From the UHGV virus genome UHGV-0067929: a DNA stretch of 41,007 nucleotides, one strand, 5' to 3'. The translations under genes were made by a program, and so were the position numbers. Positions 1,400-40,455 of this stretch are shown here, one piece after another; the first letter of the stretch is position 1, and each line of letters starts with the position of its first letter. Under the pieces are notes generated by a model. The model was given only the letters and a program-made list of their open reading frames with translations, had not been told where the DNA came from and searched no databases. Source of the DNA: a virus.

Positions 1400-2281
1400 T
1401 TACATAGATGTTTCGTTTAATTCTTCCCGACGAACGCTGTAAACGTCGGTGGCTTTTGCCAGCAGTTCGTCATCATCTGAAAGTTTTTGTGCAATGTATT
1501 TGTAAGCCTTATCCAGTTCGGAGACAGTGCTGTAATTCATCGCTGCGCTGGTAAAGGCCATCAGCATTTCTTCTGGATCACGGCTATCCGCTTTACGCGT
1601 TTGCTCATCAGGCTTTTTCGCTGGTTTAGCGTTGATCAGACTGTTCATTCCCGCAGCAGTGGTCGTTTGCGGAGTAATGTCTCGCTCAACGCGCGGTGCC
1701 GTTTCCTGTAATTCGTCAGGGGTGTAAACACCGAGAAGTACATCAGGAGCGTGCAGGCGAGCCCATCGTTTCGTGCAAAGATAGGCAAGCTGCTGGCGCG
1801 GATCCTGTTCCCACAATGGAGAGTTACGCACTCCGGCTTGCGCCATACTGATGGTAAGCTCACGGGGTTCTGCTTCTCCTTTAAGAACTGCTGACACAGT
1901 TACCGTCAGATTCGGTGATTTATCTGTTTTGCCGTTAACATTCGACCAGTCACCGCTCCAGCGATAATTCAGGCGTGTCGCTAGCAGGCTGGAAGAGGAT
2001 ACGACCGCGTTTACCAACTGTGCTTCGTAGCCTAACGTTCCGTTTACCACATGCGTTTTCTGCGCCACGGCGAAAGGATTCATTCCCCACTGTGCCGCCT
2101 GCATGGTCACCGCCAGACAATCGGCAGGTTTGCCTTCAAGATGTTTCGGTACAGTCGCTTTGCTTTGTGACATCAACTCCGCGAAACGCACCAGTTGATT
2201 CATGCCCTCCGGGCTGAAGATTGCCGCAGCAGTACCTACAGTTGCGCCTGGTTGTGATGTGATTGCGATATCATTGCTCAT
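1400..2281 (-). CDS. single-strand annealing recombinase (Bet/RecT-type)
   Basis: 293 aa; segment SPLWEQDPRQQLAYLCTKRWARL resembles the conserved Bet region (WQSHPKRMLRHKAMIQCARL as recalled); immediately downstream of and overlapping the exonuclease gene. Confidence 0.7.
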   Translation of the reverse strand: MSNDIAITSQPGATVGTAAAIFSPEGMNQLVRFAELMSQSKATVPKHLEGKPADCLAVTMQAAQWGMNPFAVAQKTHVVNGTLGYEAQLVNAVVSSSSLLATRLNYRWSGDWSNVNGKTDKSPNLTVTVSAVLKGEAEPRELTISMAQAGVRNSPLWEQDPRQQLAYLCTKRWARLHAPDVLLGVYTPDELQETAPRVERDITPQTTTAAGMNSLINAKPAKKPDEQTRKADSRDPEEMLMAFTSAAMNYSTVSELDKAYKYIAQKLSDDDELLAKATDVYSVRREELNETSM

Positions 2282-3099
2282 ACGTACATATCCTGTTTAC
2301 GTGCCCAGTCAGGGCGTTTAATAATTTCCACTCCGCCCCACTCATCGTTGATGCGGCATTCGTGATAGGTATTCAGATCCCGGCGGAACAGAGCGTGCCC
2401 GGCATCGACATCCGGCGCATCCAGCTCGAACACGCGTACCGGATACCGACCACAATCAATGCTTTCGCTCACGGCAAGAAAGAAAAAACCATGTGGCTGA
2501 CCAGTAACCCTCATTGCGCCTTCGCGGTACATTGCGTCCTGCACGTGGTAGCGGAACTCCTCGATGTGGCGTGCAAAACGGTCCATATCTGCAACCTTTT
2601 TCACGTCGACGATCACGTTGTGCTCGTTCAGCCATTTGTCTGGACGAATTCGGCACAACTCACCCGTATCTTCATCGTTCCAGTACATTGATGCTTCGCA
2701 GTAACCAGGTGCTTCCAACATCCAGCGTGCCGCCGGGTGAGCCATTGCGCTATCACGCATCAGCTCCAGTTTTCGCCACTGCTCTGCATCAAGTACCGAA
2801 ATCCCCATATCCGCTACATCACGAATAAATGCCTCTTCGTCAGCTTTACCTTGTTTTGTCCGACGATCGAATTTCGGTGAAACGATGAAGCGTTTGTCAA
2901 ACTCTCCAGGTTCCAGAAGCAGACAGTGCAGAGCAGTACCCATGTCCAGTGCAGACTTCTTCTCTTCGTCTTCCGGAGCAGCCTTCACCCATTTCAGAAG
3001 GGCAGGGTTCTTAGCCACCATATCTAGCTGCGACTTACTCACGCCGTCACCGGCGTGGTAGTCCTCGTTGCTGATATCGAAATAAATTCCCGGATTCAT
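2278..3099 (-). CDS. PD-(D/E)xK family exonuclease (recombination partner of the annealase)
   Basis: 273 aa; GTALHCLLLE, RIRPDKWL and VIVDVKK motifs consistent with RecB-like nuclease fold; ATGA overlap with annealase start. Confidence 0.7.
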   Translation of the reverse strand: MNPGIYFDISNEDYHAGDGVSKSQLDMVAKNPALLKWVKAAPEDEEKKSALDMGTALHCLLLEPGEFDKRFIVSPKFDRRTKQGKADEEAFIRDVADMGISVLDAEQWRKLELMRDSAMAHPAARWMLEAPGYCEASMYWNDEDTGELCRIRPDKWLNEHNVIVDVKKVADMDRFARHIEEFRYHVQDAMYREGAMRVTGQPHGFFFLAVSESIDCGRYPVRVFELDAPDVDAGHALFRRDLNTYHECRINDEWGGVEIIKRPDWARKQDMYV

Positions 3100-3703: not shown

Positions 3704-4288
3704 TTATTGTTTGTTTTTTTCGTTCTGGTTGATGACAAATTCAATGTAACTTTCGATCTTTGCCTTCTCTGTTTCAGGTAACAATGCGTAGCGCGAGCGG
3801 TCATAGTTGATAGTTGCAGGGTCATGCGGATGGATCAGTAGTTCATATCCGTGACGCCCGAATGCAGATGCAACATTCTCCAGGGTGGAAATGGAAACGC
3901 TGACCTCATTGTTTAACAGGCGGCTTATTGTCACCTGGGCGACGCCGGATGCGCGGTGAAGTTTTCCCTGAGTTGAAAGGTCGCGGCTTTCACTCATCCA
4001 GCGTTCCAGGTTGTGAGCTGCCAGCTGACCAATGTCGCTTGGGCCGACAGGCTGAAAACCTTCCTGAGAAAGCGAGCGATCGATATCAAGCCAGTTACGG
4101 GGTTTATTGGCGGCAGCTTCAATTTTTCGCGCAACCTGGTCGCCGATAACCTTCTTGCCAAGAGCCCAGCGGTTTACCAGATTTGCCTGAGTTCCAAGTT
4201 TTTCTGCCATCCGCGTCTGAACACCATTGAATTCACGGTCGATCAAGTCGTTGAGATTTTGCCTGCGGACGTCCTGGATACTTTTCAT
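3704..4288 (-). CDS. CI-like prophage repressor with two HTH regions, no peptidase S24 domain
   Basis: 194 aa; HTH-like segments MAEKLGTQANLVNRW and SGVAQVTISRLLNNEVSVSISTLENVASAF; divergent from Cro-like gene with palindromic operators between. Confidence 0.65.
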   Translation of the reverse strand: MKSIQDVRRQNLNDLIDREFNGVQTRMAEKLGTQANLVNRWALGKKVIGDQVARKIEAAANKPRNWLDIDRSLSQEGFQPVGPSDIGQLAAHNLERWMSESRDLSTQGKLHRASGVAQVTISRLLNNEVSVSISTLENVASAFGRHGYELLIHPHDPATINYDRSRYALLPETEKAKIESYIEFVINQNEKNKQ

Positions 4289-7846: not shown

Positions 7847-8025
7847 AGCTAAGATGCTTATCTCCCGTGTATACAGATTTTGCTATCCCAGCCAGTGGTT
7901 GAGAGTTAGCAATCGCCGTGTGGTGTTGTTTTCATTTTCTGGAATTGCCAGAGAGGGAATCAAAGATAAGCGCAGCGCGGCGCAAAACCGCTGGAAAAAC
8001 CACTTGCGCACTAAAGGAGATTGAT

Positions 8026-8391
8026 ATGGCACTGACGAAAAAACAACGTGCAGAACTGCGCATGAAGTTCGGCGGTCGCTGCGCTTATTGCGGCTGCGAA
8101 CTTGGCGAAAAGTGGCATGCAGACCATGTAAAACCGGTCATTCGTTTTAATGGAAATATGCTTCACAAGGAACGTGACGATATATCCAACATGGTTCCGG
8201 CATGCCACCCATGCAATCTGCACAAGCATTGCAGTAGCCTGGAAGATTATCGGCGAATTATCAGTGATGGTCGTCGTGAATTCCTTGCGTCCGGGAAAGG
8301 CAAGGCGCTGGTTCGTATGGGATTGGTTGAAATGAAATCTGACCCGGTTGTGTTCTGGTTTGAAAAATATCAAGAAGGGGCTACGGCATGA
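8026..8391 (+). CDS. HNH endonuclease
   Basis: Start at ATG 8026 after AAAGGAG; CAYCGC...HADHVKP...N...PACHPCN motif (zinc-binding HNH). Confidence 0.8.
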   Translation: MALTKKQRAELRMKFGGRCAYCGCELGEKWHADHVKPVIRFNGNMLHKERDDISNMVPACHPCNLHKHCSSLEDYRRIISDGRREFLASGKGKALVRMGLVEMKSDPVVFWFEKYQEGATA

Positions 8392-12890: not shown

Positions 12891-12967
12891 TGGCGTGGCA
12901 TGCAGGATTCGAACCTGCGACCAACTGCTTAGAAGGCGGTTGCTCTGTCCAACTGAGCTAATGCCAC
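12891..12967 (-). tRNA. tRNA-Arg (anticodon UCU), phage-borne argU-like
   Basis: 77-nt cloverleaf read by hand: 7-bp acceptor stem GTGGCAT/ATGCCAC, D-arm TAGCTCAGTTGGACAGAGC, anticodon loop CTTCTAA, T-arm GCAGGTTCGAATCCTGC, CCA end; one C-A mismatch in anticodon stem. Confidence 0.8.
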
Positions 12968-29382: not shown

Positions 29383-29796
29383 ATGAAGGAATTATTGCTG
29401 TTATCGGTATTTTTGATATCCGCTTGCTCGACATCCTATGATGTTTATGACGGTGTTGATAAGGCATATTGCGACAAAGTTAAAATGGATTTTTCTCTTG
29501 CCAAGACGGCGAAGGATAGTTGTATTGATCACTACGTCAAGACTTATACCAAGCCAGCATCATCGGCATCTGATATTGCTGAAGGTGCTGTGTTTGAGTG
29601 TAACAAGGTGATATCCATCGCAGCGAGTTCTTCATACGATGCTGCTGTATGTGCAATGGCTGAAAGAAACGGCATGTCAGTGCAAAAAGTTAATAGCATG
29701 ATAAACAGTAATGACGAAGCCAAAATAAGAACTGATATCAGCTCGGTGAAAAAAGATGCCATGAACAGAGTTGTAAAATATCAGTCATCTTTATAA
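29383..29796 (+). CDS. lipoprotein (moron; candidate superinfection-exclusion factor)
   Basis: Signal peptide with lipobox LISAC; low GC compared with flanks; five further Cys in mature part. Confidence 0.6.
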   Translation: MKELLLLSVFLISACSTSYDVYDGVDKAYCDKVKMDFSLAKTAKDSCIDHYVKTYTKPASSASDIAEGAVFECNKVISIAASSSYDAAVCAMAERNGMSVQKVNSMINSNDEAKIRTDISSVKKDAMNRVVKYQSSL

Positions 29797-29799
29797 GTC

Positions 29800-29811
29800 G
29801 TGACATGTCAC
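29800..29811. repeat. 12-bp perfect palindrome GTGACATGTCAC (copy c)
   Basis: Junction between lipoprotein gene and Bro island, next to terminator hairpin. Confidence 0.6.
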
Positions 29812-29812
29812 A

Positions 29813-29835
29813 GGCCGCAAAAGCGGCCTTGTTTT
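29813..29835 (+). terminator. intrinsic terminator after lipoprotein gene
   Basis: GGCCGC-AAAA-GCGGCC then TTGTTTT. Confidence 0.6.
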
Positions 29836-29853
29836 AACGAATGCCACCGCCCG

Positions 29854-30540
29854 TCAGAAGAACCCTGCTTTGTCGTTGATGTACTCCGCGTGCGTCTGGA
29901 TATCACGCAGGCATTTGTTCACACCGACGATGTAGCAGAACATGGTGGTCAACTCCGCCGCCGCGCCCGATACGTCGTGCCCGTCGTCCTGTAACTGGTT
30001 CAGCAGATTCATCAGCAGTGAGTTCTCCGTCAGGCCGAGAACACCAGACGGCGAGTGAATCAGGCTGCGGTAGCCGGGCTTCAGTGGGGCGCTGTAGGTT
30101 TTGTTCTCTATCTTCATTGCCTGCATCACTGCTGATGCTGTGGCGTTGGCTACTTGGTCGGCAACCATCTTTATGCGTTCTTCCTGCGGGAGCGAGTTTT
30201 TAATGTAACTTCCGGTGCGGCGGATCTGAGGAAGAACCTCACCTGTAACCCATTTACGAAAGCGGTATGGGATAGTGCCTGGTGTCACCGCATCGCGGCA
30301 GCGGAGGATCAGTGTGTAGAGGCCTGACTCGTTGATAATATTGGTTTCGCCTTGACGGCCTAAGTTAAATTTAGCCCTTTCATCATCATCAAGAGATTTT
30401 ATTGACATAGTGGGGTTTGTCAGTTGAAGAGCTTTAATAACGTCTTTGGCAACAAACCAAGGATTTCCATCAATAACAATGGCTCGAATGGTTGCTTCTG
30501 ATTCAAAATGAAAAACAGATGGGGTTACGTTAGCAGTCAT
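29854..30540 (-). CDS. Bro-N domain antirepressor-like protein, paralogue 1
   Basis: Start set to ATG 30540 by alignment with paralogues (MTANVTPSVFHFE...IRAIVIDGNPWFVAKDV Bro-N signature); constant C-terminal module shared with 31767-32459 and 33543-34238. Confidence 0.75.
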   Translation of the reverse strand: MTANVTPSVFHFESEATIRAIVIDGNPWFVAKDVIKALQLTNPTMSIKSLDDDERAKFNLGRQGETNIINESGLYTLILRCRDAVTPGTIPYRFRKWVTGEVLPQIRRTGSYIKNSLPQEERIKMVADQVANATASAVMQAMKIENKTYSAPLKPGYRSLIHSPSGVLGLTENSLLMNLLNQLQDDGHDVSGAAAELTTMFCYIVGVNKCLRDIQTHAEYINDKAGFF

Positions 30541-30770
30541 AGTGATCACCTTTGTAGTTAGGTTAATCACCACTACCGACGCCAATCGGTTGGTGGTGAA
30601 CTGTGCAGGGTTGGCGTAACCGGCTACAAAGGACCCGGCGCACCTTTCGGTGCCCCCACACAGCCCACCATAGAATAGGTGCGCTTTACACATAAAAAAA
30701 CCGCTTATGCGGCATATGTGCCTCTGTAGTAATCCGGGACGCCAATCCCGGCACTGGATTTTGCCAGTGC
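30541..30770 (-). ncRNA. structured leader RNA of Bro paralogue 1 (candidate c4-like regulatory RNA)
   Basis: Reverse-complement copy of the same leader; elements at 30721-30729 (mimic), 30624-30632 (anti-SD), 30549-30557 (SD). Confidence 0.45.
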
Positions 30771-30805
30771 CCGATTACTATGGCACAAGAGGAGTGCGAT
30801 GTAAA

Positions 30806-30822
30806 TTTACCGCAAGGGTAAT
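30806..30822. promoter_or_regulatory. operator-like palindrome TTTACCGCAAGGGTAAT at Bro paralogue 1 leader promoter
   Basis: Abuts -35 TTTACA (minus strand). Confidence 0.5.
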
Positions 30823-30968
30823 AATAGACACAGGTGGATATTAAAATCAACCATATTTGGTTAAGGTGTATAAAAGAGCCACCAGCGAGAAATTGTACCG
30901 CGATGTAAAATAACGAGCATCTGCTGGCTTACAACCAGCGATGTTTCAAATTTGTCACTACTATCAAC

Positions 30969-31367
30969 GTGCCATTCCACGGCGCAGAACTTTATGTTGT
31001 CAATCACAACGGAGAACCGTACACCCCAATGAAACCTATCGTTGAGGGAATGGGTATGGATTGGGCTGCTCAATTTGTTAAATTAAAACAGAGATTTGTC
31101 AAAGGTATTTCGGAAATCGAAATACCTTCTGCTGGCGGTAAACAGTTAATGATATGCCTTGCCTTTCGTAAGTTTGCGGCTTGGCTTTCAAGCATTCAGC
31201 CAAACAAAGTCCGTCCTGAAATCCGCGACAAGGTAATCCAGTATCAGGAAGAGTGTGACGATGTGCTCTACGAGTACTGGACTAAAGGCCATGTGGTTAA
31301 CCCACGCAAAGCTAAAAAGGCGTTGCCGGGTAAAATAACCACTGAACAGCAGGAGGTTTACACTTAA
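30969..31367 (+). CDS. phage antirepressor-like domain protein (Ant N-terminal-type), possibly 5'-truncated
   Basis: FHGAELYVVNHNGEPYTPMKPIVEGMGMDW...RKFAAWL...QEECDDVLYEYW; only a GTG start with no SD, no in-frame ATG upstream. Confidence 0.4.
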   Translation: MPFHGAELYVVNHNGEPYTPMKPIVEGMGMDWAAQFVKLKQRFVKGISEIEIPSAGGKQLMICLAFRKFAAWLSSIQPNKVRPEIRDKVIQYQEECDDVLYEYWTKGHVVNPRKAKKALPGKITTEQQEVYT

Positions 31368-31391
31368 CACTTGATTACATTAACACAAAAT

Positions 31392-31408
31392 ATTACCTTA
31401 AAGGTAAT
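31392..31408. promoter_or_regulatory. operator-like palindrome ATTACCTTAAAGGTAAT
   Basis: Perfect arms. Confidence 0.55.
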
Positions 31409-31484
31409 ATCTTGCTTTCAGGTGATCAAGCGTTAAACGCAATCAACCAAATACGGTTGATTTTAATGTTTCTTCGCGCTTATC

Positions 31485-31501
31485 ATTACCTTTACGGTAA
31501 A
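31485..31501. promoter_or_regulatory. operator-like palindrome ATTACCTTTACGGTAAA at Bro paralogue 2 leader promoter
   Basis: Abuts -35 TTTACA at 31502-31507. Confidence 0.55.
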
Positions 31502-31530
31502 TTTACATCGCACTCCTCTTGTGCCATAGT
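31502..31530 (+). promoter_or_regulatory. sigma70-like promoter of Bro paralogue 2 leader
   Basis: TTTACA - 17 nt - (TGc)CATAGT extended -10. Confidence 0.45.
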
Positions 31531-31536
31531 AATCGG

Positions 31537-31766
31537 GCACTGGCAAAATCCAGTGCCGGGATTGGCGTCCCGGATTACTACAGAGGCACATATGCCGCAT
31601 AAGCGGTTTTTTTATGTGTAAAGCGCACCTATTCTATGGTGGGCTGTGTGGGGGCACCGAAAGGTGCGCCGGGTCCTTTGTAGCCGGTAAGACCAACTCT
31701 GCACAGTTCACCACCATCTGATTGGTCTCAGCGGTGGTGATTAACCTAACTACAAAGGTGATCGCC
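31537..31766 (+). ncRNA. structured leader RNA of Bro paralogue 2 (candidate c4-like regulatory RNA)
   Basis: From predicted TSS: two GC hairpins (31536-31573), SD mimic CTACAGAGG (31578-31586), hairpin+U7 (31594-31613), GAAA-capped hairpin (31654-31667), anti-SD CCTTTGTAG in a loop (31675-31683), 8-bp hairpin (31708-31740), SD CTACAAAGG (31750-31758). Confidence 0.45.
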
Positions 31767-32459
31767 ATGAATACCAAACCTTCCATCTTTTCCTTTGAGT
31801 CATCCTGCCAGATCCGTATGTTCATGATTGACGGAGAACCTTGGTTTGTCACCAAAGATGTGTGCAATGCTTTGAATATTGATGTTACACAAGCGAGAAA
31901 ACTTGATAAAAAAGGCTGGAACAAAAAGGGGCTGTATTCAATACAGACCCCTGGTGGAATACAAGAACTATCCATAGTTTCAGAATCAGGTCTCTACATC
32001 CTTATTCTGCGTTGCAAAGAGGCAATGACTGAGGGAACGAGAGCATTCAGATTTCTTGAATGGGTTACAGGTGAGGTTCTTCCTCAGATCCGCCGCACCG
32101 GAAGTTACATTAAAAACTCGCTCCCGCAGGAAGAACGCATAAAGATGGTTGCCGACCAAGTAGCCAACGCCACAGCATCAGCAGTGATGCAGGCAATGAA
32201 GATAGAGAACAAAACCTACAGCGCCCCACTGAAGCCCGGCTACCGCAGCCTGATTCACTCGCCGTCTGGTGTTCTCGGCCTGACGGAGAACTCACTGCTG
32301 ATGAATCTGCTGAACCAGTTACAGGACGACGGGCACGACGTATCGGGCGCGGCGGCGGAGCTGACCACCATGTTCTGTTACATCGTCGGTGTGAGCAAGT
32401 GCCTGCGTGATATCCAGACCCACGCGGAGTACATCAACGACAAGGCAGGGTTCTTCTGA
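31767..32459 (+). CDS. Bro-N domain antirepressor-like protein, paralogue 2
   Basis: MNTKPSIFSFESSCQIRMFMIDGEPWFVTKDV Bro-N signature; SD CTACAAAGG 9 nt upstream; C-terminal ~145 aa near-identical to paralogues. Confidence 0.75.
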   Translation: MNTKPSIFSFESSCQIRMFMIDGEPWFVTKDVCNALNIDVTQARKLDKKGWNKKGLYSIQTPGGIQELSIVSESGLYILILRCKEAMTEGTRAFRFLEWVTGEVLPQIRRTGSYIKNSLPQEERIKMVADQVANATASAVMQAMKIENKTYSAPLKPGYRSLIHSPSGVLGLTENSLLMNLLNQLQDDGHDVSGAAAELTTMFCYIVGVSKCLRDIQTHAEYINDKAGFF

Positions 32460-32495
32460 CGGCGGCGGCACAGGGATGTGCCTTTAAATAATCCT
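32063..32495 (+). repeat. ~0.43-kb repeat R2 (3' half of Bro paralogue 2), inverted relative to R1/R3
   Basis: Reverse complement of 33543-33960 region with few mismatches. Confidence 0.8.
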
Positions 32496-32529
32496 GTACG
32501 ATTGCAGACCGGGGGGTGAATAGAGTACT

Positions 32530-32546
32530 ATTACCTTACGGGTGAT
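32530..32546. promoter_or_regulatory. operator-like site ATTACCTTACGGGTGAT
   Basis: Upstream of leader peptide/membrane protein unit. Confidence 0.45.
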
Positions 32547-32582
32547 CCATAGCGATTAGGCACCGATACAGGAGGAGCCCAC

Positions 32583-32615
32583 ATGAGAAAATTTGACGAG
32601 TACGAAGGCGTTTAA
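32583..32615 (+). CDS. candidate 10-codon leader peptide (MRKFDEYEGV)
   Basis: ATG 5 nt after GGAGGAG, stop 18 nt before an 8-bp GC hairpin with U-tract. Confidence 0.3.
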   Translation: MRKFDEYEGV

Positions 32616-32633
32616 CATTCGGATAGTTTAATG

Positions 32634-32657
32634 ACGGGGCCATCAGGCCCCGTTTTC
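32634..32657 (+). terminator. attenuator-like hairpin between leader peptide and membrane protein gene
   Basis: ACGGGGCC-ATCA-GGCCCCGT then TTTTC. Confidence 0.5.
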
Positions 32658-32674
32658 ATGTCTGGAGACAGTTT

Positions 32675-33214
32675 GTGTTAAGTGAAGAAATGCAATTTGC
32701 CATGGCTGTGGCTCAAATCGTAAGTGCAGTCGCGGTTTCGCTTGGCTTGTTCATAGCTATCGCTACTATTATTTATAATGTAAATACAGCGAGAAAAGTA
32801 CACACTTCAGTATTCCTTGGTGAAAGCAGGTTTGATGTAGATTATAAGAAAGGCCTATCTACTATGCGCCGCATTCACGAGTCGAACAAATCATTCCGCT
32901 CTTATATGTATCCAAGCAATGGGCAGGCTGATCTTACGGATGAAGAAAAGATAGAGAAGAGAGAAATAATTTACTGTCTAGGTTTCTACGAACGCATGGC
33001 TGTGAGCGTGAAGCGGAAAACTTATGATGAGACCATGATTAAGGAAGTATTTTACAGCTCCGTTGTAAATAACTATCAGATTGCGCTACCTCTTATACAA
33101 GCTATTAGAGAAAAAGAAAACATAAACACATATTTTAAAGAATATGAATGGTTGGCCACACGATGGAAGGATTGTCCATTGAAGGATAAATCCCCGTGGT
33201 ACAAGTTTTGGTAA
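32675..33214 (+). CDS. membrane-anchored protein of unknown function (AT-rich moron)
   Basis: N-terminal hydrophobic helix (AMAVAQIVSAVAVSLGLFIAIATIIY) then ~140-aa soluble domain; markedly AT-rich coding region; followed by terminator. Confidence 0.6.
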   Translation: MLSEEMQFAMAVAQIVSAVAVSLGLFIAIATIIYNVNTARKVHTSVFLGESRFDVDYKKGLSTMRRIHESNKSFRSYMYPSNGQADLTDEEKIEKREIIYCLGFYERMAVSVKRKTYDETMIKEVFYSSVVNNYQIALPLIQAIREKENINTYFKEYEWLATRWKDCPLKDKSPWYKFW

Positions 33215-33236
33215 GCCCGCAGCGCGGGCTTTTTTG
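33215..33236 (+). terminator. intrinsic terminator after membrane protein gene
   Basis: GCCCGC..GCGGGC then TTTTTTG. Confidence 0.6.
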
Positions 33237-33307
33237 TGGATGAAACAAAAGTCAGTGCTACACTCATTGACGCCACATTGAGATGGCTTATAGATGGAAA
33301 TCTCACA

Positions 33308-33469
33308 ATGAAAAAAGCATTTGCTGCACTGTTCGTTTTGTTGTCTCTGGTGGCTTCAACTCAGGCCTCTGCTGGTCGTTGTCAGCACGACAGCGACACT
33401 GCTGCTGACGGCTCCCGCTGCGGCGGGCGTTCTGCGGATTCCCGCCCGGGTGGCGGTGGCATTCGTTAA
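33308..33469 (+). CDS. small secreted Cys-containing peptide (53-aa precursor)
   Basis: Canonical signal peptide MKKAFAALFVLLSLVASTQASA with AxA site; promoter-like TTGACG-N16-TATAGA upstream. Confidence 0.45.
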   Translation: MKKAFAALFVLLSLVASTQASAGRCQHDSDTAADGSRCGGRSADSRPGGGGIR

Positions 33470-33491
33470 AAACAAGGCCGCGAAAGCGGCC
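33468..33491 (-). terminator. terminator downstream of Bro paralogue 3
   Basis: GGCCGC-GAAA-GCGGCC followed on minus strand by TTGTTTTT. Confidence 0.5.
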
Positions 33492-34021
33492 TGTGACATG
33501 TCACGATAGTTCCGTTTTGCACATCCCTGTGCCGCCGTTCTGTCAGAAGAACCCTGCCTTGTCGTTGATGTACTCCGCGTGGGTCTGGATATCACGCAGG
33601 CACTTGCTCACACCGACGATGTAACAGAACATGGTGGTCAGCTCCGCCGCCGCGCCCGATACGTCGTGCCCGTCGTCCTGTAACTGGTTCAGCAGATTCA
33701 TCAGCAGTGAGTTCTCCGTCAGGCCGAGAACACCAGACGGCGAGTGAATCAGGCTGCGGTAGCCGGGCTTCAGTGGGGCGCTGTAGGTTTTGTTCTCTAT
33801 CTTCATTGCCTGCATCACTGCTGATGCTGTGGCGTTGGCTACTTGGTCGGCAACCATCTTTATGCGTTCTTCCTGCGGGAGCGAGTTTTTAATGTAACTT
33901 CCGGTGCGGCGGATCTGAGGAAGAACCTCACCTGTAACCCATTTACGAAAGCGGTAGGGGATAGTTCCTGGTGTCACAGCATCGCGGCAGCGGAGGATCA
34001 GTGTGTAGAGGCCTGACTCGG
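33492..34021 (-). repeat. ~0.5-kb repeat R3 (3' half and 3' UTR of Bro paralogue 3)
   Basis: Direct repeat of R1, 3.7 kb apart. Confidence 0.8.
33493..33504. repeat. 12-bp perfect palindrome GTGACATGTCAC (copy d)
   Basis: Other flank of the Bro island core, next to terminator hairpin. Confidence 0.6.
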
Positions 34022-34238
34022 AGATGATGATCGATTCTTGCTCACCGCCAGGGGTGTCGGTTGAAGCGACGCCCTTCTCATCATCATCAAGTTTTCGAAC
34101 AGCATCTCGATGGTTTGCTATGCCTATAGCCCGACAAACATCTGAAGCGATAAACCATGGCTCACCATTAATGACGATTACTCGTATATCGCCTTGGGAT
34201 TCGAAAGAAAAAATGGACGTGCTTTTTGTAGCTGTCAT
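33543..34238 (-). CDS. Bro-N domain antirepressor-like protein, paralogue 3
   Basis: MTATKSTSIFSFESQGDIRVIVINGEPWFIASDV; SD CTAAAAGG; constant C-terminal module. Confidence 0.75.
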   Translation of the reverse strand: MTATKSTSIFSFESQGDIRVIVINGEPWFIASDVCRAIGIANHRDAVRKLDDDEKGVASTDTPGGEQESIIISESGLYTLILRCRDAVTPGTIPYRFRKWVTGEVLPQIRRTGSYIKNSLPQEERIKMVADQVANATASAVMQAMKIENKTYSAPLKPGYRSLIHSPSGVLGLTENSLLMNLLNQLQDDGHDVSGAAAELTTMFCYIVGVSKCLRDIQTHAEYINDKAGFF

Positions 34239-34468
34239 AGTGGTTACCTTTTAGTCTGGTTAATCACCACTACCGACGCCAATCGGTTGGTGGTGAACTG
34301 TGCAGGGTTGGCGTAACCGGCTAAAAGGACCCGGCGCACCTTTCGGTGCCCCCACACAGCCCACCATAATACGAATGTGGCCGTGCTATACGCATAAAAA
34401 AACCGCTTGCGCGGTGAATGCGCCTTTTAGTAATCCGGGACGCCAATCCCGGCACTGGATTTTGCCAG
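34239..34468 (-). ncRNA. structured leader RNA of Bro paralogue 3 (candidate c4-like regulatory RNA, variant specificity)
   Basis: Same architecture; elements at 34423-34430 (mimic CTAAAAGG), 34321-34328 (anti-SD CCTTTTAG), 34247-34254 (SD CTAAAAGG), all changed in concert. Confidence 0.45.
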
Positions 34469-34506
34469 TGCCTGATTACTATGGCACAAGAGGAGTGCGA
34501 TGTAAA

Positions 34507-34523
34507 TTTACCGCAAAGGTAAA
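34507..34523. promoter_or_regulatory. operator-like palindrome TTTACCGCAAAGGTAAA at Bro paralogue 3 leader promoter
   Basis: Same position relative to leader as 30806 and 31485 copies. Confidence 0.5.
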
Positions 34524-34826: not shown

Positions 34827-34887
34827 GCAATAACTGTATATTTATACAGTAGCAAATAATTTGTTTGCTATCCAGCACGTTTTGCAA

Positions 34888-39378: not shown

Positions 39379-39921
39379 TTAATTAAACCAACTGTCTGAT
39401 TTATTTTCTTCTGCTTTACCCACGCTTTTCATCAAATCACGACCACCTTCAGTCATATTCCTGTTAGCGTCAGCTTCAGATTGTACAACATCGGTTTGCG
39501 CTGCTTTGTGTTTCAGTTCCTGATCGATAAATTCGTTCTCACGCTTAACGCGCGCTTCTTCTTTTGCCAGCGCCAGTTTTTGCTTCTGAATCTCTAAGTT
39601 GCGTAGCTCATCTTCATAACTTTGATCGCGCTTTTTATCCGCAGTGAATTCGGCGTCCCGTTTATCCTGGCGAGCTTTTTTATCCGCTGCTGCTGCTGCC
39701 GCTCTTTTATTCGCTGCGGCCTGAGCGTTTGCGCGCCGTTGCTTCTCTTGCTGGATTTCCCTGTTGCGCTCCGCAACCCATTCGTCATGCTGCCTTTGTT
39801 CTTCATTTTTGCCTTGCTGTTCAGCTTCTGCGACCGCAGAGAGTTGATCCTGTAATGAAGAGGCGAAAGCCGGGCTACTAACAGCAGCTAATATGGCGGC
39901 GCAAAGAAAAACTTTCTTCAT
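39379..39921 (-). CDS. secreted Ala/Lys/Glu-rich coiled-coil protein (host-like)
   Basis: Signal peptide MKKVFLCAAILAAVSSPAFA; lies outside the lysis cassette beyond a bidirectional terminator. Confidence 0.55.
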   Translation of the reverse strand: MKKVFLCAAILAAVSSPAFASSLQDQLSAVAEAEQQGKNEEQRQHDEWVAERNREIQQEKQRRANAQAAANKRAAAAAADKKARQDKRDAEFTADKKRDQSYEDELRNLEIQKQKLALAKEEARVKRENEFIDQELKHKAAQTDVVQSEADANRNMTEGGRDLMKSVGKAEENKSDSWFN

Positions 39922-39936
39922 GAGTCCTCCTGATAG

Positions 39937-40455
39937 TTAGCTCTTTTCAGGACATTTTGTATTTGGCTGAATACGCGTTTCGTTATAAGTGGTGGTAATA
40001 ACAACGGCTAAACCCGTTGTGAACTGGCATTCTTTACCCACCTGGGTGGAGGTGTACACTTTGGTGCCTTCCTTATAAGTTAAAGAGACACCTTCCACTA
40101 AGGTTTTATCATTCACCATAGTACCCGCTGCCGCGCCTACAGCTCCGCCACCAACTGCACCAGCCGTTGTTCCGGAGTTACTACCAGATCCAACGTTATG
40201 GCCGATAACGCCGCCTGCGACAGCGCCAATAAGTGCGCCAAAGGCTTGCGCATTCCGTTTATTTTGTGAGTTATCTACGGCAACTTTTGCGGGAAGAATG
40301 GAGATAATATTAACGGTTTTAGTTTCTTGCTTTGTATTCAGTTGATCGGTTTGATAGACATCGGCGGCATGGTCGTCAGCATTTGACTGGCATCCTGCCA
40401 GGGTGAATGACGCTAAAATTGCCACAGGCAGAAAACATTTTTTAAATTTCATCAC
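39937..40455 (-). CDS. glycine-zipper lipoprotein (YcfJ/Umo-like, host-like)
   Basis: Lipobox LAGC; GALIGAVAGGVIGHNVGSG glycine-zipper core resembling E. coli YcfJ as recalled. Confidence 0.65.
   Translation of the reverse strand: MMKFKKCFLPVAILASFTLAGCQSNADDHAADVYQTDQLNTKQETKTVNIISILPAKVAVDNSQNKRNAQAFGALIGAVAGGVIGHNVGSGSNSGTTAGAVGGGAVGAAAGTMVNDKTLVEGVSLTYKEGTKVYTSTQVGKECQFTTGLAVVITTTYNETRIQPNTKCPEKS

Follow-up and report, generated by a model that had tools for sequence, protein, structure and literature searches.

The stretch of DNA analysed here is the 41,007-nt virus genome UHGV-0067929 (the whole stretch is called the window below), and the locus under study consists of three genes with Bro-N domains that lie among long repeats, between the final large virion-protein gene and the tail-spike gene. 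By comparison and synteny with phiV10, the genome that hosts them is a phiV10/epsilon15-like (Uetakevirus) Escherichia coli prophage of the podophage type. Taken as a whole, the explanation that we consider probable is that this locus is the antirepressor region of the prophage (immI-like, "anti-immunity"), expanded to three paralogous modules, and that it represents a multi-copy variant of the P1 immI, Gifsy-1 isrK and SPC32H Ant systems. In this explanation, related phages exchange the variable middle of the modules, formed by the recognition sites of a C4 antisense RNA and the N-terminal protein domain, by ordinary homologous recombination and not through a programmed cassette switch. The coordinates of all the features are given in Table 1.

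The three Bro-N open reading frames (ORFs), already pointed out in a sequence-only reading of the window, are real, with matches to Pfam Bro-N (PF02498) of E = 5e-20, 2e-13 and 2e-21 (72.3, 51.4 and 76.7 bits, for a gathering cut-off of 25.6); they are named here as modules A, B and C. That reading had also described repeats longer than 400 bp, and a self-comparison found inverted repeats of 535 nt (31926-32460 / 33542-34076) and 480 nt (29851-30330 / 31983-32462), in addition to a direct repeat (29853-30152 / 33542-33841, 98% identical in the repeat search) and an inverted leader repeat of 297 nt (30530-30826 / 31481-31777, 94%). The repeats are thus genuine, but the gene repeat begins near 29851 and not at 29800, the preceding positions being occupied by a bidirectional terminator. 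When the three modules were aligned by segments, DNA identities of 91-98.5% were found for the promoter plus isrK, of 91-98% for the C4 segment, of only 51-63% for the Bro-N coding segment, and of 98.3-99.8% for the final 403 nt, which encode the C-terminal tail. Hence, the N-terminal Bro-N domains diverge as had been described, and the near-identical C-terminal region is also there, with a length of 132 amino acids (WVTGEV...AGFF) instead of the approximately 145 first given. Modules A and C have SGLYTLILRCRDAVTPGTIPYRFRK in common, again as described.

The constant upstream segment could be identified as an RNA leader. Searches against Rfam detected isrK (RF01394) in three copies with 76.8-77.9 bits (gathering score 50), and the C4 antisense RNA (RF01695) also in three copies, with 74, 77.7 and 79.5 bits (gathering score 45). 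Every leader carries a TTTACA-17-CATAGT promoter and an intrinsic terminator of IsrK. C4 has two recognition sites, a' and b', which in the three modules are complementary to their own downstream targets, a2 in a hairpin loop and b2 on the Shine-Dalgarno of each Bro-N gene, with pairing lengths of 7 nt for a'/a2 and of 8-9 nt for b'/b2. A leader of around 300 bp is common to the three modules, in agreement with the "same ~290-bp leader" of the sequence-only reading; the leaders differ, however, at the antisense recognition sites and thus cannot be taken as identical, the few differences being located on the specificity determinants. The modules therefore have three C4 specificities that are partly separate, A and B differing at site a, and A and C at site b.

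To place these differences in a wider context, we gathered 150 copies of the leader, partly from the related loci and partly by scanning viral contigs; 92 of them are unique, and these fall into 11 classes. Among the unique leaders, nine b' variants and four a' variants were found in the exposed segments of C4, and for every one of them the a2/b2 sites downstream, as well as the a1/b1 sites of IsrK, were complementary, with one exception. This exception is the leader of the window's type B, a chimera whose isrK a1 site is of type A and consequently mismatched with the a' of its own C4. The computed energies of the loop-target duplexes were of -22.7 to -23.8 kcal/mol for cognate pairs vs -13.1 to -21.2 kcal/mol for non-cognate ones. 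In the readthrough RNA of module A, the minimum free energy fold pairs IsrK with C4 in cis (z = -5.5). It was also observed that a small ORF starts from an ATG located in the C4 stem, within its 5' strand (30625-30672 and 34265-34368, both on the minus strand), of 15 codons in A and B and around 35 in C, a difference in length that arises because the b' indel shifts the frame; a 28-aa gene is called there in some relatives. Such an ORF is not conserved, so it is probably not an equivalent of orf45 or icd.

The second constant part, the tail, is related to an antirepressor of known structure. No family of Pfam was found for this C-terminal module, and its identity came through PHROGs and a PDB sequence search, in which amino acids 150-226 matched the 86-aa antirepressor Ant of Salmonella phage SPC32H (5D50_E, E = 1.9e-13), a protein that was crystallised with its repressor in 5D50. 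Directly upstream of module C there is in addition a stand-alone ant gene, orthologous to SPC32H ant (E = 4e-47), whose product is 42% identical to the C-terminal module, and the window also encodes a homologue of the SPC32H repressor Rep (5D50_A, E = 4e-42). The tail is under strong purifying selection, with pS (synonymous polymorphism) = 0.13, pN (non-synonymous polymorphism) = 0.005 and pN/pS = 0.04 among 52 distinct sequences. In papers describing the work on SPC32H, the Ant tetramer is reported to bind two Rep dimers and to break the DNA-binding Rep tetramer (PMC9638917), and both tetramerisation and Ant binding are assigned to the C-terminal domain of Rep.

The sequence-only reading had presumed that the repressor is targeted by the variable N-terminal domain. 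This assignment was not supported, as the homology to Ant falls in the constant C-terminal module and the cognate Rep is encoded in the window itself. Because of this homology, of the presence of Rep and of the strong purifying selection, the constant tail is the best candidate to bind the repressor, and judging from these sequence comparisons it is likely that the tail, and not the Bro-N domain, plays this role. The tails of the fusions would thus bind Rep, which is presumably the target of all four Ant-type domains. To our knowledge, the tail of the Bro-N proteins is not recognised as an Ant homologue in the annotations seen, which read "Bro-N domain-containing protein" or "putative anti-immunity protein".

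The genes for these four Ant-type domains differ in their upstream control elements. Three LexA sites were found in the window vs 0.54 expected, and the only one in the locus is a perfect box that precedes the stand-alone ant; the three Bro-N fusions have isrK promoters instead and no LexA box. A different motif, the palindrome TTACC-N5-GGTAA, appears 16 times in the window (with up to one mismatch) vs 0.85 expected. It is found in the rep-cro intergenic region, abutting the -35 hexamer of three out of three isrK promoters, and upstream of the ant promoter. Eight exact copies are found at syntenic positions of phiV10 (vs 0.02 expected), and almost every Bro-type leader of this phage group has the palindrome, which is missing from the other C4 leader classes. 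Across the genome, the palindromes are located at operon starts. With this distribution, the palindrome is a putative Rep operator, and its dispersed copies look like a network of the kind described for P1, where the operators of C1 are dispersed and the production of Ant is repressed by the c4 RNA (PMC8546580).

By analogy with the P1 immI, P4 and Gifsy-1 systems, the following order of regulatory events may be proposed. Each module comprises, in this order, a palindrome abutting a sigma-70 promoter, IsrK and its terminator, the C4/CI-type RNA, the a2 hairpin loop and the b2 Shine-Dalgarno, and a gene in which Bro-N, a linker and Ant are fused. Pairing of C4 with a2 and b2 would block translation of the fusion protein, and the a1/b1 mimics of IsrK would counteract C4. 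After DNA damage, cleavage of LexA would lead to the production of the stand-alone Ant, which would disassemble Rep tetramers in such a way that the three IsrK promoters would become derepressed, and the balance between IsrK and C4 would then decide on the translation of the Bro-N::Ant fusions. These would reinforce or broaden the derepression through their Ant-like tails, with the Bro-N heads possibly adding other activities, and the existence of multiple C4 specificities may widen both the escape from homoimmune relatives and the protection against them.

The proposal that the repeats are substrates for recombination was also borne out, and they have in fact been used. In the component maps of around 35 related loci the same building blocks appear in different number, order and orientation, from no module at all in Salmonella phage 65FD (as in the Salmonella relatives, only the LexA-controlled ant is found at this position), through one in phiV10 (ant plus one module) and two in TL-2011b and many E. 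coli prophages, to the three of this window. The product expected from a deletion between A and C is one of the single-module arrangements found in nature, and the DUF4760 gene between convergent A and B modules shows opposite orientations in two of the related loci (L021 vs L150). Among 5,426 complete E. coli genomes, 470 contain the tail, in one copy as the median and in three at most, and 537 contain the rep gene. The exact arrangement of the window was found in a 219-kb ENA (European Nucleotide Archive) contig from two samples (L015/L024), and a metagenome scaffold of independent origin (L023) has its left half.

The divergence of the tails is independent of the N-terminal type, with a median of 13-14 differences both within and between types. 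Inside this genome, the tails of B and C are identical without interruption over 402 nt, and A deviates from both at six positions. The absence of differences between B and C contrasts with a between-locus median of 14 per 397 nt, only 1.1% of the between-locus pairs being identical. The A tail is a mosaic in which the first 300 nt or so are those of B and C, precisely at the four positions that distinguish other A-type loci, and the last 100 nt belong to the A lineage. In the leader of module B, the promoter, IsrK and b' loop of A are joined to the B-type a' and a2 sites. These data support that the modules are gene-conversion mosaics, the copies having been homogenised within this genome. 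In the explanation given above, the DNA is repeated because the two conserved parts, leader and tail, work as homology arms, and the RecT recombinase and the exonuclease encoded in the window are a plausible enzymatic route for recombination between repeats.

At least seven N-terminal domain types were found on the same tail. A unit formed by tail, spacer and DUF4760 comes after Bro-N types A-D and after an AntA domain, and the tail alone is also fused to P22_AR_N (the Ant of TL-2011b) and ORF6N domains. For this range of architectures we also used a homologous-protein search with the tail, and only for this, as most of the proteins retrieved were AntA fusions (74% identity) and the near-identical Bro-N proteins escaped it. 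Each type is nearly invariant, with one protein sequence in 33 copies of type B and one in 24 of type A, and an exact copy of the module A protein is present in 22 contigs. Accordingly, the N-terminal repertoire, which had been thought to be in diversification, is made of a few discrete and highly conserved alleles. Domain-swapping proteins of this kind have been described as a "Bro network", which is found in company of C4/isrK RNAs (PMC10111431).

Several points weigh against the antirepressor explanation as formulated above. As A and B, and also A and C, share one recognition site, the separation of their specificities is partial, and module B may be partly mis-wired because its isrK mismatches its own C4 at site a. 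The assignment of the palindrome as Rep operator comes from the distribution of the motif and is putative, and the predicted binding of the fusion tails to Rep derives from an identity of 37-42% to Ant. The AlphaFold2 (AF2) model of the tail is of low confidence (predicted local distance difference test, pLDDT, of 67, from a 14-sequence alignment); its top two Foldseek matches were 5D50_G and 5D50_H with probability 1.00, the E value of 0.013 being weak and the target-normalised TM-scores (template modelling scores) 0.67-0.75, and the model is taken as weak support for the homology to Ant. Finally, none of the 5,426 complete E. coli genomes has the exact arrangement; the assemblies that show the three modules together are draft or metagenome ones of the short-read type, and short-read assemblers cannot always orient a segment between 400-bp inverted repeats.

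A more ambitious version of the antirepressor explanation, which we put forward as a tentative idea with rather low expectations, would see the modules as an expandable hub of RNA-addressed antirepressors. Its proteins would be bifunctional, with a constant tail to neutralise the Rep of the phage itself and an exchangeable Bro-N head aimed at a second target (for example the repressor of another prophage, a DNA site or a host factor), each of them locked by its own antisense "key". If so, the possession of several keys would allow the phage to escape the C4-based immunity of homoimmune lysogens, and the prophage could silence the antirepressors of several superinfecting relatives, in an arms race fought through compensated changes at two short RNA sites.

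Equally doubtful in our opinion is that Bro-N domains A, B and C are the true target-specific parts, each directed to a different repressor (that of a co-resident prophage, for example), with the Ant-like tail serving only as a tetramerisation scaffold. Such a role would fit with discrete N-terminal alleles being swapped on a constant tail, with Bro-N, AntA, P22_AR_N and ORF6N being typical N-terminal domains of annotated antirepressors, and with the antirepressors known in Salmonella that act in trans to cross-induce other prophages (PMC7380047). Nevertheless, the only homology with an experimental ground is that of the tail to a protein solved with its cognate repressor, and no N-terminal type was connected with a repressor by what was tested here. 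Moreover, Bro-N is usually regarded as a DNA-interacting domain, and one of them is a repressor in a Vibrio satellite (PMC10111431).

It could also be thought that A and B, as additional modules, arose as neutral side products when related phages recombined, and that they are redundant and in decay, as could be suggested by the truncated P22-type antirepressor gene in the locus, by the isrK/C4 mismatch of module B and by the single module of most relatives. We find this improbable, since the three ORFs are intact, the low pN/pS of the tail denotes constraint, dozens of genomes show no variation in N-terminal types A and B, and every C4 still fits its own downstream target.

A programmed, shufflon-like cassette system, in which a dedicated inversion or deletion between the repeats would switch or diversify the N-terminal, repressor-targeting domain, is very unlikely. 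The constant-variable-constant layout on which this proposal was built is real, and the N-terminal domain is indeed exchanged on a constant background, but at the level of the population and with no mark of a dedicated cassette system. No gene for an invertase, a resolvase or a serine or tyrosine recombinase was found among the ORFs of the window that were scanned, nor is one implied by the synteny with phiV10. The three genes are complete and independently promoted, each with its own small RNAs (sRNAs), Shine-Dalgarno and start codon, in such a way that there is neither a silent cassette nor a single expression site. As the tails are 98-100% identical, crossovers in leaders or tails regenerate the same three proteins, so inversion or deletion would yield no new protein. 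The scarcity and near invariance of the N-terminal types, and the position of the Ant homology in the constant part, are further arguments against it. Lastly, that mis-assembly across the 400-bp repeats created the triple arrangement, or the way in which its segments are oriented, is extremely improbable in spite of its restriction to draft and metagenome assemblies, given its presence in the 219-kb contig from two samples and, for the left half, in the independent scaffold, the finding of each junction also in complete genomes with one or two modules, and the internal consistency of the conversion mosaics.

The ingredients of the locus, read as an expanded antirepressor region, are all known, and what sets it apart is their combination, that is, an SPC32H-type Ant domain fused to Bro-N, under C4/IsrK control and in three copies and specificities, beside a LexA-controlled ant. 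Compared with the Rep-Ant system of the epsilon15-like phage SPC32H (PDB 5D4Z and 5D50), the window carries an orthologue of Ant (85 aa) that is preceded by a LexA box and occupies the same position in the genome, a homologous Rep, and tails homologous to Ant. Here, however, the Ant-type domain appears four times, three of them fused to Bro-N and under sRNA instead of LexA control, with a predicted binding of the fusions to Rep. With the immI region of P1/P7 (C1-controlled promoter, c4 antisense RNA, icd and ant1/2), the locus shares a C4-family RNA upstream of an antirepressor gene, two recognition sites that pair with the ribosome-binding region, specificities that vary by compensated changes, and a probable repressor operator at the promoter, with further such candidates dispersed in the genome. 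In contrast to immI, there is no icd-like ORF between C4 and the gene, and the Bro-N start codon comes directly after the b2/Shine-Dalgarno, which is itself the target; the product is a fusion of Bro-N to an SPC32H-type Ant and not Ant1/2, and three modules with three specificities coexist in one phage.

In the isrK-orf45(STnc1160)-anrP region of Salmonella Gifsy-1 (PMC4825925), a C4/CI-like RNA and a gene resembling those of antirepressors also come after an IsrK with a readthrough terminator, IsrK being complementary to the downstream RNA, whereas the present locus lacks a conserved equivalent of orf45, is triplicated, and belongs to a podovirus with an SPC32H-type repressor. The Gifsy-1 paper draws parallels between IsrK and P4 seqA, and between STnc1160 and P4 CI (PMC4825925). 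The immunity region of P4 (CI RNA, seqA/seqB/seqC) has the same succession of upstream mimic (seqA, as IsrK), antisense RNA (CI, as C4) and downstream target, but it controls the termination of transcription of replication genes, while the target here is the ribosome-binding site of an antirepressor gene. The "Bro network" (Bro-N, AntA, P22_AR_N, ORF6N, KilA-N and others; PMC10111431) also shows swappable N-terminal domains on a common C-terminal module in a dynamic zone with C4/isrK RNAs; in our case, the C-terminal module can be named (SPC32H-type Ant) and the boundaries of the exchange have been mapped to the RNA leader and to the linker/Ant domain. The Hin/Gin/Cin and Rci invertible or shufflon systems likewise have inverted repeats flanking segments with gene parts, but the repeats of the locus are of 300-500 bp vs the short crossover sites of those systems, there are neither recombinase genes in the ORFs scanned nor promoterless cassettes, and inversion gives no new protein.

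With these assignments, two previously anonymous constant parts, the leader and the tail, now have a name, and the likely binding to the repressor is moved from the variable to the constant domain. A single phage can keep related antirepressors behind three antisense locks that are partly separate, and predictions follow on prophage induction, cross-induction and superinfection immunity in a prophage family that is common in E. coli and includes O157 typing phages and prophages of pathogenic strains. The natural matched pairs of sRNA and target are possible orthogonal translational switches, and the locus offers a clean example of how a conserved RNA leader and a conserved protein domain serve as homology arms for module exchange and for concerted evolution within one genome.

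Table 1. Position of the features of the antirepressor locus and of related elements in the window.
Feature	Position	Strand	Remarks
Module A promoter and palindrome	30777..30821	-	TTTACA-17-CATAGT with TG; palindrome TTACCCTTGCGGTAA, probable Rep operator
Module A IsrK sRNA with intrinsic terminator	30694..30770	-	RF01394, 76.8 bits; sites a1 and b1 mimic the C4 target
Module A C4/CI-type antisense RNA	30589..30675	-	RF01695, 79.5 bits; a' = ACGCCAA, b' = CCUUUGUAG
Module A target region	30541..30588	-	Hairpin loop UUGGCGU (a2); CUACAAAGG (b2) overlaps the Shine-Dalgarno of the Bro-N gene
Module A gene	29854..30540	-	Bro-N type A (aa 1-96), linker and Ant-like C-terminal domain, 228 aa; from ORF, Pfam and alignment
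Module B palindrome and promoter	31486..31530	+	Palindrome TTACCTTTACGGTAA
Module B IsrK	31537..31613	+	Same sequence as module A IsrK
Module B C4 antisense RNA	31632..31718	+	Rfam 74 bits; a' = AGACCAA, b' = CCUUUGUAG
Module B target region	31719..31766	+	a2 loop UUGGUCU compensates the a' of B; b2 CUACAAAGG at the Shine-Dalgarno
Module B gene	31767..32459	+	230 aa; Bro-N type B joined to the Ant-like C-terminal module
Module C promoter and palindrome	34478..34522	-	Palindrome TTACCTTTGCGGTAA
Module C IsrK	34396..34471	-	Rfam 77.9 bits; b1 = CUAAAAGG, matches the b' of C
Module C C4 antisense RNA	34286..34371	-	Rfam 77.7 bits; a' = ACGCCAA, b' = CCUUUUAG
Module C target region	34239..34285	-	a2 UUGGCGU; b2 CUAAAAGG at the Shine-Dalgarno, 1-nt deletion matching the b' of C
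Module C gene	33543..34238	-	231 aa; Bro-N type C (as phiV10 gp23) joined to the Ant-like C-terminal module
Stand-alone antirepressor ant, 85 aa	34554..34811	-	Directly upstream of module C; PDB 5D50_E, E = 4e-47; phrog_450
LexA box, perfect	34834..34849		CTGTATATTTATACAG; directly upstream of ant
Phage repressor Rep	3704..4288	-	Homologue of SPC32H Rep; PDB 5D50_A, E = 4e-42
Palindrome TTACC-N5-GGTAA	3570, 3632, 4344, 4392, 4729, 6675, 6737, 10082, 10100, 13290, 30807, 31393, 31486, 32531, 34508, 34889		Putative Rep operator
Phage RecT recombinase and PD-(D/E)XK exonuclease	1400..3099	-	Pfam RecT, E = 1e-31; DUF3799, E = 3e-22
Truncated P22-type antirepressor N-terminal domain ORF	30969..31367	+	Pfam P22_AR_N, E = 8e-42
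DUF4760 membrane protein, cargo gene	32675..33214	+	Pfam, E = 2e-30; own terminator at 33213-33231
53-aa signal-peptide protein, cargo gene	33308..33469	+	phrog_14503
Bidirectional terminator following module A	29798..29835		Inverted copy at 33469-33506, following module C

Other genes were observed inside and around the modules. The P22_AR_N ORF lacks its 5' end and an Ant-like tail when compared with the full ant gene of TL-2011b, which ends in the same Ant-like tail and has an arc-like gene ahead; remnants of this ORF, of differing length, adjoin module A or B in several relatives. A variable slot for cargo genes is found 3' of the Bro-N::Ant gene (32463-33506), with equivalent slots in the related loci L001, L004-L013, L018 and L143-L152. 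It is occupied here by DUF4760, which in the relatives moves together with the 3' end of the C-terminal module, and in other relatives by a YafO-family toxin with a 59-aa partner, by DUF2335 or by uncharacterised genes of 210-287 aa, the slot usually ending with the same 53-aa signal-peptide protein. A literature search on DUF4760 gave nothing useful, and PADLOC returned no defence-system match for DUF4760, the 53-aa protein, a 137-aa lipoprotein, a Bro-N protein or the P22_AR_N remnant. This 137-aa ORF (29383-29796, plus strand), with a lipoprotein-type signal (…LISAC), stands where phiV10 has a 46-aa membrane protein (phrog_8691) and is probably a moron. A second cargo slot exists in many relatives (L014, L016, L017, L019, L020, L022, L144, L145, L149 and L151), where the interval from the LexA-controlled ant to the isrK promoter has received an uncharacterised gene of 242 aa on the opposite strand.

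Outside the locus, an HNH endonuclease ORF (7918-8391, plus strand) lies among the early genes, and a DUF5384 gene and a gene for a glycine-zipper/TraT-like lipoprotein are found on the opposite strand past the lysis cassette (39379-40455, minus strand), where phiV10 has its integrase gene; these two are likely to be lysogenic-conversion genes or the edge of the prophage. A tRNA-Arg(UCU) gene (12891-12967, minus strand) is located between the terminase and portal genes, which is also annotated in the related element pHL15EC-2 and not in phiV10. This pHL15EC-2 (NZ_CP079771.1; locus L154), a circular "plasmid" of 41,027 bp from E. coli HL15, carries a rep 99.8% identical to that of the window and one type-A module together with YafO, and it may be an excised or replicating phage genome instead of a plasmid.

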